A stretch of DNA of 18,422 nt from a virus (lineage: Duplodnaviria; Heunggongvirae; Uroviricota; Caudoviricetes): the IMG/VR virus record IMGVR_UViG_2582580966_000018; one strand, written 5' to 3'. A model generated the notes under the pieces. It did not search any database, was not told the DNA's origin, and saw only the letters and a program-made list of their open reading frames with translations. Shown here piece by piece: positions 1 to 11,444 of this stretch (position 1 is the first letter of the stretch; every line of letters begins with the position of its first letter). The translations under genes and the position numbers were made by a program.

Positions 1-399
1 TCACTTCAGCGGGTAGTCATCAAACTCACCAGTCCGCGCGTCATTGATGATGTACGTCACCACCCCCTTCACTACGACTCGTTCCTCACAATCGTCGTCA
101 GTTATCCATGTCTTTTTATCAGCGTGGTCCAGTTCTTCCAGGTGCACCTTTGGCAGCAGCCTGAGACGCAACAGCCGTATCTGGTCATTCAGATGACAAA
201 TCACCAGGCTTCCGTCTACCGGAGTCAGCGATGTGTCCATGACCAGCAGAGCACCTCTCTTGATTCCTTCCCGCCATGATGTAGCAGCGTAACGGATGAA
301 GAATGTCGCCGCTGGTTTTCGTATCAACTCCTTGTCGAGTGAGATCGCATCCTCGTGGTAATCAGCAGCAGGGCTGGGAAACTGTGACATGGCAACCAT
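1..399 (-). CDS. UmuD'-like protein (S24 LexA/UmuD peptidase fold), 132 aa
   Basis: Translation aligns by eye with E. coli UmuD from the FPSPAADY motif onward; the Ser of the catalytic dyad is conserved (TSW vs GDSM). GAGG Shine-Dalgarno 6 nt upstream of ATG at 399. Window starts at its stop codon, so any downstream umuC-like partner is outside the window. Confidence 0.6.
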   Translation of the reverse strand: MVAMSQFPSPAADYHEDAISLDKELIRKPAATFFIRYAATSWREGIKRGALLVMDTSLTPVDGSLVICHLNDQIRLLRLRLLPKVHLEELDHADKKTWITDDDCEERVVVKGVVTYIINDARTGEFDDYPLK

Positions 400-414
400 A
401 ACTCACCTCATTGG

Positions 415-434
415 CACTGTATGTACATACAGTA
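415..434. promoter_or_regulatory. LexA (SOS) box, CTGT-N8-ACAG palindrome
   Basis: Sequence cACTGTATGTACATACAGTa; the 18-bp core 416-433 is a perfect palindrome matching the LexA operator consensus, 16-35 nt upstream of the UmuD'-like start codon. Confidence 0.65.
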
Positions 435-444
435 CCAATGCATG

Positions 445-488
445 GATTTTGATCGTTGCAACCGATCGATTTGAAGATTTTGATCGTT
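445..488. repeat. Two perfect 13-bp direct repeats (GATTTTGATCGTT) 31 bp apart, with three GATC sites (451, 464, 482)
   Basis: Read directly: repeat copies at 445-457 and 476-488, and a CGATCG palindrome between them at 463-468. Lies in the AT-rich divergent intergenic region upstream of the 579..1865 gene. Confidence 0.8.
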
Positions 489-578
489 ATTTCCCATAAC
501 CAAATAGTGAGCAATTTTGGGACATTTATTATAAATTTAAATTGTCTTTAAATATAAATATCCAATCGGTAAATCATC

Positions 579-1865
579 GTGAAAAATAATTCCGCGCTGT
601 TTGTTGGTTCTTTTTTTGAAAGTGACCAAAGCTCAAAAGTAAACCTGGCATTATCTTATGATGGAGAACGATTCGAAAAAATAAAGGCTCAATTCCTTTG
701 GGCTATTGGTGGAACTGGAGAAGTTTTAGGGAGAGACCCATCAATTATTTATCACAACGGTTGGTGGTTAATAGCCGTATCAGGATATACAGAAAACGTT
801 TATGACGTCGATTGCTGGCGCTCACGTGATTTAACCGTGTGGGAACTGGTACGAATTAAGCTTGGCGATACGCCAGTCTGTGGGAAACGATTACCGGGTT
901 CAGATCTGGTGACCACTGACGTGTGGGCTCCTGAATGGTTTGTTGATGACGAAAATCTGTTCCTGATAGTCAGCCTGCGTTATTACAACGATCAGACTGA
1001 CAGTAAAGGTGTAAATGTCAAAAGTTTTAAAACATTCTATTCTGTCTGTTCTGATGTTGAGAGACTGGAGTTTTACGATCCGGTTGCGGTAAATATCGAA
1101 CCAAAAAACATGATTGATTCTGTTTTTTCCAGAATATTCCAGACGTATTACCTGACAATAAAAGATGAAATCACCAAAAAAATTGAGGTGTATTGTTCAA
1201 ATTGTTTCTCAGGACAGTTCACGAAATTATCAGTAATTCCGTTTACTCAGGCGGCGGAAGGCCCGGCGCTGGTTTATTTGCCGGACGGCACGATCAGAAT
1301 CTATGCGGATTTTTTCGACACAAAAAAATGGACTTATTTTGTAGACACGAAAGACTTCGTGACGTTCACGCCAGAGCGCCCCGTTTTGTTTGACGGCAGA
1401 ATTAAGCGCGGGACTATTACAAATGTGCTGAACTGGCGCGATAGTGAAACCGCATTGCAGCAACTGTCGGCGCTGTTCTGTGCAAACTCCGGGGATTTAC
1501 AGCCAGGGAAAATCCACAAGCTCATTGATGTAGCGGGAACGAGCAATATCAACGCTACTGATTTAATCTGGTGGCCTGAAACTGGACATTGTTATTTCAC
1601 CGAGGGGTTATCCGGTAACGTGACAATCAATGCGCTGCCAACTGTTTACCCGGACGGGAGTTCGTTTTATCTGATGGTCCGAAGCGCAACGCCGGGAGCT
1701 GGTGATCTGACGCTTAAACAGGCTGTCGGCGACCTGTACCACCCGGCTAATGGCATGGCGATATTTGATGCTGATTTGGTAGTGGCGGCTGGCGGGAACG
1801 CCGCATCACGTCTGTTTAGAATGGTGTGCTTTGATGGCCAGTTGTGGGTTGAGGGGGTTTTCTGA
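579..1865 (+). CDS. Hypothetical protein, 428 aa; unknown function, AT-rich cargo gene
   Basis: Long uninterrupted ORF. Only possible start is GTG at 579 (in-frame stop at 570-572 just upstream) and there is no clear Shine-Dalgarno. No motif I can assign; the many aromatic/Gly/Asp residues hint at a beta-rich, possibly carbohydrate-active fold, but that is a guess. Confidence 0.55.
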   Translation: MKNNSALFVGSFFESDQSSKVNLALSYDGERFEKIKAQFLWAIGGTGEVLGRDPSIIYHNGWWLIAVSGYTENVYDVDCWRSRDLTVWELVRIKLGDTPVCGKRLPGSDLVTTDVWAPEWFVDDENLFLIVSLRYYNDQTDSKGVNVKSFKTFYSVCSDVERLEFYDPVAVNIEPKNMIDSVFSRIFQTYYLTIKDEITKKIEVYCSNCFSGQFTKLSVIPFTQAAEGPALVYLPDGTIRIYADFFDTKKWTYFVDTKDFVTFTPERPVLFDGRIKRGTITNVLNWRDSETALQQLSALFCANSGDLQPGKIHKLIDVAGTSNINATDLIWWPETGHCYFTEGLSGNVTINALPTVYPDGSSFYLMVRSATPGAGDLTLKQAVGDLYHPANGMAIFDADLVVAAGGNAASRLFRMVCFDGQLWVEGVF

Positions 1866-1899
1866 TATAATTGTGGCTCAATGAAAATTGGGCCACATA

Positions 1900-2961
1900 A
1901 TGAACAATAAAATATTTTCCGTCCAGTATCTTCGTGGAATAGCAGCGCTACTTGTGGTGCTGTACCATTTTTCTTTTTTTACTCCGCGCTGGTTTGCTAA
2001 TTTATTTGCAAATGGCATGGTGGGCGTTGATATTTTTTTCATTATCTCTGGATTTATTATTTATTGGTCAACAATAAATCCTGAGGAATGCAGACCAACG
2101 GTATTTATTGTTAAACGATTCGCCAGAATATACCCGCTATTTTTTGTTGTGTTACTGGTTTCGTTGTTATTGCAACCTGCGCCTGCCACACAATTATCCA
2201 GGGGTTTTCTGGTTCTGCACAACGATTACACACTACCCGCTCCGGCGTTTGGATTTAATCTGCTACCGCCCGCGTGGACATTGACTTATGAAATATCGTT
2301 CTACGCTATTTTCTGTATGTGCGCTGCAATAACGACCCGGTATCGAGGTTCATTGTGTATCGCGCTGCTGATTGCAATCCCGGCAGTGCTACAGGTTGCG
2401 TTTAATGGAGGGTTGTCGTTTAACAGCACAGTCACCGCTATCCCTCCTGCTGACTCGCCGTTTTATGGTCTAATCAGGCTGGCAGGCTCAACGATGTTTT
2501 ATGAGTTTGCGTTTGGGATTATGTCTGGAATGATATTTGAAAGGTTTAAATTAATTCTTCCTAACTTAACTGCTATTACTATAGCAATATTCGCATCGGC
2601 TTTATTTTTCTATTTTTTCTTCACATTCTCAGACCATACCAGCGGTATAGAAGGAATGTTCTTTTTTGCTGCAATATTTTTTGTGGGCGTTTTGATGCTG
2701 GATAAATCAAAGGCGGGAGAGATAAAAGCATTATCAATTCTTGGCGACCTGACATATAGCATTTATCTCTGTCATTGGCTGGTAATGCAGATGGTACAGA
2801 AATTTATTCCGATTGGGGAGTATAAGCACTGGGGCGTCCTTGTCCCCTGCATGCTTGTTGCTTCTCTGATGATGGCATTCGCAGCTAACCGGATAATTGA
2901 AAAACCGTTTATCCGTCTGGCCCGTTCGGCGCTGAAACGCCAGGAGATTACGACGCGGTAG
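1900..2961 (+). CDS. Acyltransferase family 3 integral membrane protein (O-antigen/polysaccharide O-acetyltransferase-like)
   Basis: Strongly hydrophobic multi-helix protein with the N-terminal pattern typical of acyltransferase-3 / Oac-like enzymes (LRGIAALLVVLYHF...GVDIFFIISGF). ATG at 1900 preferred over the track's TTG at 1888. Sits 23 bp after the previous gene, suggesting co-transcription. Confidence 0.7.
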   Translation: MNNKIFSVQYLRGIAALLVVLYHFSFFTPRWFANLFANGMVGVDIFFIISGFIIYWSTINPEECRPTVFIVKRFARIYPLFFVVLLVSLLLQPAPATQLSRGFLVLHNDYTLPAPAFGFNLLPPAWTLTYEISFYAIFCMCAAITTRYRGSLCIALLIAIPAVLQVAFNGGLSFNSTVTAIPPADSPFYGLIRLAGSTMFYEFAFGIMSGMIFERFKLILPNLTAITIAIFASALFFYFFFTFSDHTSGIEGMFFFAAIFFVGVLMLDKSKAGEIKALSILGDLTYSIYLCHWLVMQMVQKFIPIGEYKHWGVLVPCMLVASLMMAFAANRIIEKPFIRLARSALKRQEITTR

Positions 2962-3412
2962 CAGGACGTGGCGGCCATTCAAGGCTGTCACTTAATATCG
3001 CTGCTTCATCATTAAACTTCATTTTCTTCAAGGCATCGATATGAGCAAGCCACTCTTTAAAGGTCGCCTTCTCTTCATCGGTGATGATCTCCAGAATGAG
3101 CTTAGAAGGCCAGTGTTCGCTGCTTATATATGCGTTAGCCGCAGAGATTAACGCATCTCTCTTTGACTCGGCCTGTGCCAGTTTAAGCGCGAACAGTTCT
3201 TCTTTAGTTGGCTCGGGAATTTTTTCCCACGCAGGCATGCCGTCTGGCCCTGCAACCCTTCGCATGCCGTCTTTAACTGTTGGGTAAAATTCGGCGAAAA
3301 CACCCATATCAACCGGCACAGCATCACTGTATTCGTCCGTCTTTAACAGAGAGCTTTCCTTGAAAACAAAAGCGTTGCTTTTGGCACTATATAAAAAATC
3401 TGAATCAGACAT
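2948..3412 (-). CDS. tfa: Tail fibre assembly protein (Tfa family chaperone)
   Basis: C-terminal TDEEKA...W...EWPPRP pattern and N-terminal region resemble lambda Tfa / TfaE. Start codon overlaps the stop of the upstream tail-fibre fragment (TAATG). Converges on and overlaps the acyltransferase 3' end by 14 bp. Confidence 0.75.
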   Translation of the reverse strand: MSDSDFLYSAKSNAFVFKESSLLKTDEYSDAVPVDMGVFAEFYPTVKDGMRRVAGPDGMPAWEKIPEPTKEELFALKLAQAESKRDALISAANAYISSEHWPSKLILEIITDEEKATFKEWLAHIDALKKMKFNDEAAILSDSLEWPPRPATAS

Positions 3413-3847
3413 TACGCTCTCCCGATAGCAATCCAGTTAAAAACTGTTGGCTGCGCAGTAAAGTTGTGGTCGGACGAACTCCAGGTTGCAGAACGAACAT
3501 TAAAGCTCCCTGCGTTAACCTTTTCGGCACCATACACGGTTAAGAGTTGATAGATACCGCCGGAGGCTGTCCATCCAGAGACATGGCCTTCTACTGCAAA
3601 TACCTGGTATGAGCTCATCGCCACACCCATATTCACATTATAAAATCCGTTACTGTCCGTTGTACCTACATCCATCTGGATGATCATATTGCCAGGAAGG
3701 CGAATAACCACACCAGACCCGGTTGTTGTATAGGTAAAGGATGACATATCCGGAACTTGCCCGGTAGCCGGTATAAATCACACACTCTCCGACATACACA
3801 TCATCCGGATGGGCAAACAGCTCTTGTTTGTCTGTGAGCTCTGCCAT
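3412..3847 (-). pseudogene. Side tail fibre C-terminal fragment, frameshifted near 3772-3780
   Basis: Two overlapping minus-strand ORFs (3650..3847 and 3412..3747) in different frames. Reading across the junction gives one continuous ~145-aa product (…YVGECV | IPATGQVPDMSSFTYTTTGSG…). GGAG 3 nt upstream of ATG at 3847. Positioned directly upstream of tfa, as a tail-fibre distal domain would be. Confidence 0.45.
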
Positions 3848-4204
3848 TGTTGGCTCCGTTTATCCGTTAAAAGGGATATCAGTTAAGTTATCCCGTGCAG
3901 GGTATAAGCCATTGTCGAGACCACTCATTGAATGGCCTCTGCAATAACCGATGTCTTTCCATCAGTCCGCCACAACAAAGAATCTTTTTTGCCATAAGGC
4001 AGGAGGTTCATCTTTCAGTGGCTGCCAGTGTTATTTCCCCACTTACTGGCTTGGGTTGTTTCGTGGTACTGCCGTAACTGGTTGCCAAGAATAAATTCCG
4101 GTTTCATTATCAAGCCCACCCGTAGATGGGCTTTGTAATGGATAGCCGTTGCTCAGTTCTCGTAATGCTTTGATTTTTCCGATAACGCAGTTTTGCGTTT
4201 GCCA

Positions 4205-4726
4205 TCAGCACGCGATATCGAGAGTCAACTGCAGTTGCTCGCGCCAGTACTCAACATTTGCTTCAATAACCGGCTTATCCCATCGCCAGCGAGCCATCTC
4301 TCTTGCCCCATTGCTGGCTTTTGATTTCCGGTCATCGCGAATGCGACATGCTTGCTCATATTTCTGCTGCTCAGTCAGTTCACCGCGAAGCAGACTATCA
4401 ATGTGCAGGTCGCACCACACAGCAAAACGAGCATCACACCAACGGGCAAATGCAACTGAAAGTTTTGGATGTAGCCACGTACCACCACCCCTGTCCTTTC
4501 GTGCCTTGCTGGTTTTTACATACCTCGATTGTGAGGGATGTAAAATTTGAGATTCTTTCCCGGTCAACGCTTCGTCTAAAGCACGAACGTATTCAAGCGT
4601 TTCTGCCAAACGCATCCAGTTATCAATGCGTTTTCCAAATCTCTCAGCAACACCTGTGACGTTGATCCAACCATCAGTGTTGAAACTGACAATTTCACCT
4701 TTGTAATTAAGTGGCACGATATTCAT
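4205..4726 (-). CDS. KilA-N domain protein, 173 aa
   Basis: N-terminal region (…FNTDGWINVTGVAERFGKRIDNWMRLAETLEYVRAL…) fits the KilA-N DNA-binding domain pattern. Separated from Rz by tandem terminators, so likely its own transcription unit. Confidence 0.55.
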   Translation of the reverse strand: MNIVPLNYKGEIVSFNTDGWINVTGVAERFGKRIDNWMRLAETLEYVRALDEALTGKESQILHPSQSRYVKTSKARKDRGGGTWLHPKLSVAFARWCDARFAVWCDLHIDSLLRGELTEQQKYEQACRIRDDRKSKASNGAREMARWRWDKPVIEANVEYWREQLQLTLDIAC

Positions 4727-4841
4727 AACGTTTACCTACCATTTGAAATGAACCTTTGCCGCATAGGAAACCAGCCCACCGAGGCTCGCCAGCACTAACT
4801 GGTATCCTCAAAGGCCCATTCCAAAGGGGCAGGTTCGGTGT

Positions 4842-4866
4842 AAAAAACATGCGTTGCGGTACGCAT
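4842..4866 (-). terminator. Intrinsic terminator-like hairpin (second of tandem pair after Rz)
   Basis: Minus strand reads ATGCGT-accgca-ACGCAT followed by TTTTTT. Confidence 0.5.
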
Positions 4867-4870
4867 TTAT

Positions 4871-4896
4871 TGCAAAAAGCCCCGCATCGCGAGGCT
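4871..4896 (-). terminator. Intrinsic terminator downstream of Rz/Rz1
   Basis: Minus strand reads GCCTCGC-gat-GCGGGGC (7-bp stem with one G-U pair) followed by TTTTT. Confidence 0.6.
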
Positions 4897-4927
4897 CATT
4901 AAATTGACTTTGTGATTTGCAAAAAAA

Positions 4928-5386
4928 TTATTTCAGGCATTGCGTCCTGATGTATTCCTGCAGGTAGTTAACCTGCGCGGTTATCTTGTCGATTCCACTT
5001 CGGAGACGGTAATAATTGAGTTCAGCATCTGCTGTAAGTCTTGGGCTTTCTCCATCGCCCATGCTGCTGGCTCCGGTCGTTGACTTTGCACAGGTGGCGG
5101 CGACTTGCAGGCGCTTACGACCAGCAGAAACATCAGCACGGAGACTTTCGATAGTCGCGTTAGCATCAGCAAGCTCCTTTGTATATCTGGCATCGAGTTC
5201 TGCTACATCACGTTGACGCTTCCGCATGTCAGCGATGGTGGCGTTCGCCTTCTCCAGTTCACTGGCCTTGTTATCGCGCTGCTCTTTGTAGGCGATTGCG
5301 TTATCACGGTAATGATTGACCGCCCACGACAGGCAGACGATGATGCAGATAACCAGAGCGGAGATAATCGCGGTTAACCGACTCAT
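4928..5386 (-). CDS. Rz: Rz i-spanin (inner-membrane spanin subunit)
   Basis: From the internal ATG ([30 protein letters not shown]…) the product closely resembles lambda Rz: N-terminal TM anchor then coiled-coil periplasmic domain. The longer ORF-track extension is rejected. Confidence 0.85.
4981..5166 (-). CDS. Rz1: Rz1 o-spanin lipoprotein, embedded in the +1 frame of Rz
   Basis: [27 protein letters not shown]… has a lipoprotein signal with Cys and a proline-rich mature part, nested inside Rz as in lambda. Confidence 0.7.
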
Positions 5387-5474
5387 GACATCAACACCCC
5401 AACGGCCAGAAACCACGGCCACGCATCGTTGCCATTCAATGCGAGCAACGCTGCCATGAAAAAGCAAATCATGC

Positions 5475-5978
5475 TCATTGTTGCCCCCACAAACAGACTT
5501 CACGCTCAATCTCACGACGGGTCATCAGCCCTTTCCATTGCTTACCGCCAGCGTATGTCCAGCGCCGTAGCTGATCACATGCGCCCTTGATATCGCCCTG
5601 GTTTATTTTGCGAAGAAGCGTCGATGTTCTGAAATTGCCTGTGCCCACGTTATAGACGAACGAGTAAAGAGCGCCGCGCGTTGTTTCCGGTATATCGACT
5701 TTGATGTACGGGTTAATTTGTCTGGCGACCGTGGCAAGGTCTTTATTCAGGAGGGCTTTGCATTCTGCTTCGGTATACGTTTTACCGAGCATGATGTCTT
5801 TTCCGGTGTGTCCGTGGCATACAGTCCATACACCAACAATATCTTTGTATGGTATGTAGCTGACACCTTCCAGACCATCGTTACCACTCGGTCCAGTGAT
5901 TAACACAGATGCTATAGCAATAGCCCCGCCACTTATCGCCGCTATTACGCTATTTCGTAGTGCCGGTGACATTGCCAT
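5475..5978 (-). CDS. SAR endolysin, T4-lysozyme family (GH24)
   Basis: Gly/Ala-rich N-terminal signal-anchor-release segment ([17 protein letters not shown]) followed by the canonical E-x8-D-x5-T catalytic triad ([18 protein letters not shown]). Confidence 0.9.
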
Positions 5979-6210
5979 TCAATCTGTCCTCGCGCTCTTT
6001 GCGCTTGTAGTACCAGTTGATGCCAAATGTGCCGACAGTACAAAGAATACCAATGATGACAGCCCAGTCATTCAGGGAGAGAATGCCACCCATCGCAGTC
6101 AGTCCTCCGAAGCTGTAACTGAACCATTCTCTGATTTTGTCCATAGCGCACGTTAATACCCGCTCGACGCTTTCTTTCAGGTATTGAAGGGATTGAGATG
6201 GGCTAAGCAT
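5950..6210 (-). CDS. Class II holin (pinholin-like), two TM segments, charged C-terminus
   Basis: Two hydrophobic segments then KRKEREDR tail. GGAGG 6 nt upstream of ATG at 6210; a second in-frame ATG at 6144 could give a shorter isoform. Sits immediately upstream of the SAR endolysin. Confidence 0.65.
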
Positions 6211-6570: not shown

Positions 6571-6723
6571 CTACCGGATATCCCACAGGTGAGCTGTGTA
6601 ATTGAAGGTTTTTACGTCAGATTCTTTTGGGATTGGCTTGCGTTTATTTCTGGAGCGTTTCGTTGGAAGGTATTTGCAGTTTTCGCAGATGATGTCGGTG
6701 AAACTTCGTCGCTGTCGCCTCAT
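6571..6723 (-). CDS. ninE: NinE
   Basis: [23 protein letters not shown]… matches lambda NinE. AGGAGG 6 nt upstream of ATG at 6723; ATGA overlap with the stop of the methyltransferase gene. Confidence 0.75.
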
Positions 6724-7248
6724 GCCGCCCTCCTGACGCCCTGCCCGATCGCCATCAATGCCGCTTTGGATACGGTAGTAAACATCCGTCGAGGACTGAT
6801 GAACGGTCGCCAAATCAGCAGCATGGAGCCTTTGCTGTTTCCCTTCTTCTCCAGCCCTGTCGATGGTTCGATAAAATTAATCCGTCCATCAGTGATAATG
6901 CGAACTTCGTCGACACTCTCCAGAGCCTTGCTGAACCATCCGACTGACATATCCTCTGGCACAAGCATAACTACCGTCTGTCGCTGTTGTATGCACTGCT
7001 CAGCGGCTTTTTCCACCCACGGCCTGATATTGCTGTACGGTGGGTTATTCCAGATTGCACCGTGGCTTATCCACTCAGAATTTAGCGCGTCGTCGGCCTC
7101 AGTTAACCAGTGAGCGCACAGAGCATTTTTTGTCGCTCGCTGCCGAATCCAGCCAGAATCCAAACTCAATATCCAGTGCATCAAAAAGCCAAAGCGGCGT
7201 TTGCCAGCAGTCCTTGTCGTGTGCTGGCGTATTTGATTTGATAGTCAT
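6720..7248 (-). pseudogene. Phage N6-adenine DNA methyltransferase (Dam-like, NPPY motif), frameshifted in an A6 run
   Basis: N-terminal part (MTIKSNTPAHDKDCWQTPLWLFDALDIEFGFWLDSAASDK) and C-terminal part (NALCAHWLTEADD…WNNPPYS…) lie in two frames. The shift maps to the T6 run at plus 7126-7131; removing one base restores a continuous ~175-aa reading frame. ATGA overlap with ninB stop. Confidence 0.7.
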
Positions 7249-7685
7249 GCAGCCCGATCTCCCCATCGCGCTTTCCATTCGAGAGCCAGTCGCGCTTCGT
7301 CTGACCACTTAACGCCACGCTCTGTACCGAATGCCTGTATAAGCTCTAATAGCTCCGCAAATTCGTTTACACGCATCCTGCTGGTTGACTGGCCTATTAC
7401 CACAAAGCCATTCCCGGCAAGGTTAGGAACAACATCCTGCTGCTTTAATGCTGCGGTAAACACACACTTCCAGCTTTCTGCATCCAGCCAGCGACCATGC
7501 CATTCAACCTGACGAGAGACGTCACCAAGGCAAGCCCAAAGCTTTCGATTCTGGTCTAAGCTGCGGTTGCGTTCCTGAATGGTTACTACGATTGGTTTGG
7601 TTGGGTCTGGAAGAATTTGCTGTACCGCGTGAATAGCGTTTTGCTGATGTGCTGGAGATCGAATTTCAAAGGTTAGTTTTTTCAT
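7245..7685 (-). CDS. ninB: NinB recombination protein
   Basis: From MKKLTFEIRSPAHQQNAIHAVQQILPDPTKP… the product is near-identical to lambda NinB as I recall it. Confidence 0.9.
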   Translation of the reverse strand: MKKLTFEIRSPAHQQNAIHAVQQILPDPTKPIVVTIQERNRSLDQNRKLWACLGDVSRQVEWHGRWLDAESWKCVFTAALKQQDVVPNLAGNGFVVIGQSTSRMRVNEFAELLELIQAFGTERGVKWSDEARLALEWKARWGDRAA

Positions 7686-9969: not shown

Positions 9970-10048
9970 ATGTAAGTATTTCCTTAGATAACAATTGATT
10001 GAATGTATGCAAATAAATGCATACACCATAGGTGTGGTTTAATTTGAT

Positions 10049-10080
10049 GCCCTTTTTCAGGGCTGGGATGTGTAAGAGCG
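10049..10080 (-). promoter_or_regulatory. nutR (boxA CGCTCTTACA, boxB GCCCTGAAAAAGGGC) upstream of tR1
   Basis: boxB at plus 10049-10063 and boxA (reverse complement) at 10071-10080, between cro and cII. Confidence 0.8.
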
Positions 10081-10088
10081 GGAATGTC

Positions 10089-11444
<1,356 letters not shown>

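Follow-up and report, generated by a model that had tools for sequence, protein, structure and literature searches.

The window, by which we mean the whole stretch of 18,422 nucleotides of phage DNA that was analysed (IMG/VR record IMGVR_UViG_2582580966_000018), carries a disrupted gene for a phage Dam-type N6-adenine methyltransferase between ninB and ninE (Table 1). On the minus strand, this gene starts with an ATG at 7248-7246 and ends with a TGA at 6722-6720, and its length is a multiple of three plus one base. Translation from the native start gives an ORF in which 40 native residues are followed by nine out-of-frame residues (KCSVRSLVN), and the remainder of the protein is encoded in the +1 frame, which is open from 7184 to 6720. 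The exact handover point between the two frames is a run of six adenines on the coding strand (gene positions 118-123), the sole six-base homopolymer within the gene. When one A of this run is deleted, an uninterrupted 175-aa ORF is obtained, reading ...AASDKNALCAHW..., in which the catalytic motif NPPY occupies residues 67-70. This motif is encoded in the C-terminal frame, where AACCCACCGTAC translates to NPPY. A -1 frameshift was also considered as a means of rescue and was rejected, as the -1 frame is closed in the sequence.

The methyltransferase gene overlaps both of its neighbours by the tetranucleotide ATGA, as the original prediction had described: the ninB TGA overlaps the methyltransferase ATG at 7248-7245, and the methyltransferase TGA overlaps the ninE ATG at 6723-6720. 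Because ribosomes that start at the native ATG would stop 376 nt upstream of ninE, ninE has probably lost its translational coupling to the methyltransferase gene. The ninE gene itself is present in a short form. Its codon 51 (6571-6573) is TAG in the window and TGG in phage mEp332, E. coli MB50, and phage VT2-Sakai, such that NinE is 50 aa long with the TAG allele and 58 aa long with the TGG allele. The short allele is common, being recorded on 84 contigs and in 93 index blocks; it adjoins an intact 175-aa Dam in locus L141, and also occurs in phages L137-L139, where ninE directly follows ninB without a Dam gene. The TAG was considered as a second lesion of decay, an idea that was rejected because the allele is widespread and occurs beside an intact Dam; it is a standing variant and no lesion specific to the window's lineage. 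The strand opposite to the methyltransferase gene contains an antisense ORF of 174 aa, which gene callers sometimes give instead of the C-terminal methyltransferase fragment (loci L127, L134, and L135). No Pfam match is recorded for it in these three loci, and it is most likely a spurious shadow ORF.

Table 1. Features of the window that are discussed in the text, in order of their position.
Feature	Coordinates	Strand	Remarks
S24 peptidase	1-399		
GH43-like gene	579-1865	plus	
Acyl_transf_3 gene (acyltransferase)	1888-2961	plus	
Tail-fibre assembly gene	2948-3412		
111-aa ORF	3412-3747		precedes the tail-fibre assembly gene; probable tail-fibre remnant
KilA-N gene	4205-4726		after Rz
ninF-holin fusion ORF	5950-6210	minus	86 aa
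Deletion junction	6144-6145		2,509 bp absent relative to L129
ninE	6571-6723	minus	50-aa allele, TAG at 6573-6571; NinE family match
Antisense ORF	6589-7113	plus	174 aa
Disrupted methyltransferase gene, whole	6720-7248	minus	529 nt; intact relatives 528 nt
C-terminal 135 codons	6720-7125	minus	residues 41-175 of the intact protein; +1 frame, which translation from the native start does not reach
NPPY catalytic motif (motif IV)	7035-7046	minus	3' of the frameshift
N-terminal ORF from the native start	7099-7248	minus	49 aa; TGA at 7101-7099
A6 homopolymer, coding strand (plus-strand T6)	7126-7131	minus	frameshift site; A5 in relatives
ninB	7245-7685	minus	146 aa, intact; annotated NinB in relatives; PF05772 in the identical locus L126

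Family assignment and intact relatives

Each half of the disrupted gene matches the Pfam family PF05869 (Dam, phage N-6-adenine methyltransferase) on its own, with the N-terminal ORF aligning to profile positions 1-40 (E = 6.8e-10) and the C-terminal frame to positions 37-167 (E = 1.7e-49). The repaired 175-aa protein aligns to positions 1-167 of the 169 in this profile (E = 8e-65), scoring 218 bits where the cut-off is 28.1 bits, and it matches the NCBIfam equivalog model TIGR01712 (phage_N6A_met) over positions 1-165 of 165 with 264 bits, where the cut-off is 97 bits. When checked by profile, the C-terminal frame thus has its methyltransferase motifs, and the observation of a split gene stands. 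Together with the NPPY motif, these matches bear out the original prediction of an NPPY Dam-like methyltransferase between ninB and ninE whose N- and C-terminal halves lie in different frames. A functional member of the family has a single uninterrupted frame over the whole domain. In the window's gene, frame 0 runs into the stop at 7101-7099, and since it ends so early the gene is a pseudogene of the PF05869/TIGR01712 family and not a functional member. A sequence search of the PDB returned no solved relative.

The intact form of the gene is common, and the split arrangement is no product of chance. Base for base, the window's gene is the same as the genes of mEp332 and E. coli MB50, save that it has A6 where they have A5, which confirms that the run contains one A too many and that its removal restores the frame, as had been proposed from the sequence. 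In the records that were opened (mEp332, MB50, and VT2-Sakai), an intact 528-bp CDS is flanked by ninB and ninE. A close match to an 801-bp ninB-methyltransferase-ninE query was found in approximately 2,165 of the 5,426 complete E. coli genomes (~40%), as well as in 416 phage records.

The repaired protein is identical at 174 of 175 residues to orf32 of VT2-Sakai (BAA84315.1), with which it has in common the length of 175 aa, the position between ninB and ninE, the ATGA overlaps, and the NPPY motif. The two differ in that codon 40 of the window's copy is followed by an additional A, which leaves this copy unable to encode the enzyme. A passage in a methylome paper that cites Radlinska and Bujnicki 2001 gives GATC as the target of M.EcoVT2Dam of prophage VT2-Sa (PMC6602927), and the same 2001 study appears in the reference list of a further paper (PMC7556043). 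By our own identification, made from the sequence, orf32 of VT2-Sakai would be M.EcoVT2Dam, and the repaired protein, given its 99% identity to orf32, is predicted to carry out GATC-specific N6-adenine methylation. A prophage rRNA methyltransferase was also tried as the identity of the gene and was rejected, as it is an MT-A70 protein with a DPPW motif and lies at another prophage position (PMC10810198). This enzyme, M.EcoPA8orf6770P of Stx phages, methylates 16S rRNA (PMC10810198), requires a partner protein, and belongs to another family, unrelated to the window's NPPY-containing PF05869 gene.

Rarity and inheritance of the A6 allele

When homopolymer length is compared among relatives, as the original prediction had proposed, A5 is the norm and A6 is rare. 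A 90-base query centred on the tract matched 2,078 places in 1,549 records out of the 5,426 complete E. coli genomes; at none of these places was the match to the A6 90-mer identical, and the best 60 of the 2,078 matches were all one base shorter. Likewise, there was no exact match to the A6 90-mer in the 242 matching phage records. In exact-pattern scans of IMG/VR, the A5 form was present on at least 120 contigs and the A6 form on 3, with no contig having A4 or A7, and searches of the GTDB species representatives and the JGI metagenome contigs did not turn up the A6 pattern. At the protein level, in a collection of 15 billion proteins, the cluster table lists the exact 49-aa product on 12 contigs, contig look-up gave 20 contigs that carry it, and the exact intact 175-aa protein is on at least 1000 contigs.

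The window belongs to a cryptic, lambda-like E. coli prophage. Between its lysis cassette and the cargo genes beside the host flank, this prophage has no genes for terminase, head, or tail (window positions 1-5515; Table 1), and in the identical contig L126 host genes come next after the cargo. Head and tail genes have been lost across the lineage, with the antiterminator gene Q being lost in the window's sub-lineage. In comparison with the sister prophage L129 (GCA_000704885.1), the window lacks 2,509 bp, comprising the rest of ninF, ybcO, rusA, ninH, Q, and the late-promoter region. At the junction, which has a microhomology of 2 bases only, the deletion has joined codon 22 of ninF, in frame, to the fourth codon of an HP1-family holin, creating a ninF-holin chimera (...VLTCA/MDKIREW..., with the junction at the slash), and the lysis cassette now directly follows ninX in the early operon.

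The A6 allele is found throughout this lineage. Over 17,248 bases the window is 100% identical to contig JMGU01000058.1 of the E. coli draft genome GCA_000687025.1. A6 in the window's architecture is present in GCA_000704585.1, GCA_000704665.1, GCA_000703845.1, and IMG/VR contig L003, while A6 together with the extra 2,509 bp is present in GCA_000704885.1, GCA_035608275.1, an ENA metagenome contig, and IMG/VR contigs L004 and L005. The A6 carriers of the window's lineage have at least 9 kb of identical sequence around the gene, and among the A5 loci compared, none comes near to these carriers in similarity to the window. Between 6144 and ~15,237, L004 and L005 do not differ from the window; beyond this point each has its own SNP cluster, at 15,238-16,017 in L005 and at 15,932-16,620 in L004; these patches, in the early-left region of the prophage, look like short recombination tracts. 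Because A6 is common to carriers that differ in the deletion and in the recombination patches, it has been passed on across one or more deletion events and several patches, for which a chance error in a single assembly cannot account. The allele is therefore real and inherited in one cryptic prophage lineage. Within GCA_000704585.1, three contigs (L130, L131, and L132) carry a near-identical prophage with 3 to 31 mismatches to the window, all with A6, which points to a mixed culture, to several copies of the prophage, or to duplication in the assembly.

A6 is also found in the P22-like prophages L127 (GCA_038073755.1) and L134 (Logan assembly), which have the TGG allele of ninE and replication and late modules unlike those of the window. 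In two further 49-aa products, P0002 and P0004, the out-of-frame tails differ, which marks different DNA alleles. The +1 event at the A5 tract has probably happened more than once.

Alternative readings and the fate of the gene

The original prediction had offered a sequencing error, fixed pseudogenisation, and a slippage-prone tract as possible origins of the shift. An artefact of sequencing or assembly, with a true sequence of A5 and an intact gene, is very unlikely. Homopolymer indels are a common type of error, and a systematic base-calling error could be common to the assemblies of one project; however, A6 is read in more than 10 independent assemblies of the same prophage lineage that differ in the linked 2.5-kb deletion and recombination patches, and these include the ENA metagenome contig and the later NCBI assembly GCA_035608275.1. 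In addition, A5 is read in hundreds of other genomes whose local sequence is identical, and a context-dependent systematic error would strike these genomes as well, which disfavours an artefact. An example of what such errors look like is L128 (GCA_019431125.1, a 5.08-Mb contig), which carries A6 amid extra homopolymer bases. At its locus (9990-10700 and flanks) there are extra bases in, for example, two ninE A runs, and its O, P, exo, and terminase genes are fragmented, the usual picture when long-read indel errors are left uncorrected, and the A6 of L128 is therefore probably artefactual. In contrast to these broken genes of L128, the window's ninB, ninX, O, P, and ren have the full length seen in intact relatives. 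A different possibility is that the A run serves as a contingency locus, that is, a reversible on/off switch of the prophage Dam, in the manner of phase-variable DNA methyltransferases, whose reading frame is likewise set by the length of a nucleotide repeat. In keeping with this, at least two or three allele backgrounds have A6 (ninE TAG; ninE TGG; P0002/P0004), and an A4 allele is recorded on 6 contigs. Yet phasevarions are built on phase-variable mod genes with long simple-sequence repeats, and known switch tracts have roughly eight or more bases, whereas the window's tract is merely 5-6 bases long and is A5 in >99% of copies. Neither A7 nor A4 appeared in the IMG/VR scan, and the allele has been stable across structural divergence inside the carrier lineage. 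As a control, we made a look-up of the products that other single-base changes in the homopolymers of this allele would yield. The predicted A4 product at the same tract is the one on 6 contigs, while for a second A5 run (gene positions 236-240) the +1 product is on 2 contigs and the -1 product on 6; the -1 product at the T5 run was not found in this look-up. The control run hence varies at the same low level as the frameshift tract. In a contingency locus, tract length varies widely and the on and off lengths are both common; here a single length prevails, there is no sign of switching, and a role as a switch is highly improbable. The A5/A6 tract is a generic slippage site like any five-base run, and its somewhat higher count of A6 reflects clonal inheritance in one prophage lineage. 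Of the proposal that the tract is slippage-prone, what survives is that rare +1 and -1 variants exist at both A5 runs, set against more than 1000 intact copies; nothing about this tract is special.

Rescue of the shifted frame during gene expression has also been weighed. Programmed recoding, by which a +1 ribosomal frameshift or transcriptional slippage on A6 would restore the full-length enzyme, has the attraction that precisely the wild-type DKNALC would result if the Lys-tRNA slipped by +1 on the first AAA: on GAC-AAA-AAA-TGC, the tRNA would re-pair on AAA, after which AAT-GCT-CTG would be read and the wild-type protein produced. This is sequence logic, and against it stands the fact that A6 is unconserved, with the in-frame A5 being the family norm; an arrangement that in a true frameshift site is conserved across homologs is here confined to few lineages. 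Stimulatory elements for a +1 shift were not seen in a by-eye check, in which the upstream GGCAGCGAGCGAC was without a Shine-Dalgarno-like stimulator and the A-site codon, TGC, was neither a stop nor rare. With the -1 frame closed, rescue could come solely from a +1 (or -2) shift. Efficient transcriptional slippage takes about nine or more A/T. Programmed recoding is thus very unlikely. It is equally hard to credit a leaky A6 allele, in which low-level +1 slippage by tRNA or RNA polymerase would rebuild the exact wild-type protein and make the tract an attenuator or slow switch of the orphan Dam, and in which the recurrence of A6 on several allele backgrounds would reflect selection and not just mutation pressure. 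Were the tract to switch or to be recoded, this would have a bearing on epigenetic regulation by prophages.

The disrupted gene is very probably an ordinary, recent, and fixed frameshift pseudogene of an orphan GATC-type Dam, located in the non-essential nin region of a defective prophage. Among the origins first proposed for the shift, fixed pseudogenisation is the one that fits, as A6 is heritable across one prophage lineage. The mechanism by which the gene was lost would most likely begin with strand slippage in DNA replication, adding one A to the A5 run. Translation would then leave the frame after codon 40 and stop nine codons later, and the resulting 49-aa peptide, being without NPPY and without about three quarters of the fold, would be expected to provide no active enzyme. 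The mutation is recent, judging from the lack of any other difference from the intact alleles, and zero substitutions have accumulated since the frameshift event.

The nin5 deletion illustrates that the nin region of lambda is dispensable, and E. coli encodes a GATC Dam of its own. In the host of this prophage, a resident Dam that methylates the same GATC site would be expected, in which case there would be no selection against losing the prophage enzyme; with the nin region dispensable as well, the loss should be neutral. Selection on the window's Dam is likely to have been relaxed. In keeping with its being dispensable, the nin-region Dam has been lost in a defective prophage and also in an apparently complete P22-like prophage. 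The cryptic E. coli prophages DLP12, Rac, and Qin show decay of this type. Frameshifted pseudogenes of such lambdoid prophages have in common with the window's case a single-base indel at a short homopolymer of an accessory gene, in a prophage that is also without its structural genes and its antiterminator. Nothing material sets the window apart from them, its event being very young and free of secondary substitutions. The case has little significance beyond annotation. The methyltransferase family is well known, the lesion is of the commonest type of small mutation, and this kind of feature has been known before.

For annotation, the right label is a frameshifted phage GATC-type Dam pseudogene, as opposed to the two small methyltransferase genes that gene callers report. 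The C-terminal fragments given by gene callers are 80-98 aa long and all are without NPPY, since even the 98-aa fragment would start at residue 78, past the motif at 67-70. Within the C-terminal frame, an ATG at 7181-7179 could in principle give a putative 153-aa product that contains NPPY but is without the conserved N-terminal 40 residues; no obvious Shine-Dalgarno sequence precedes this ATG. The A6 allele also serves as a handy lineage marker for one family of cryptic E. coli prophages.
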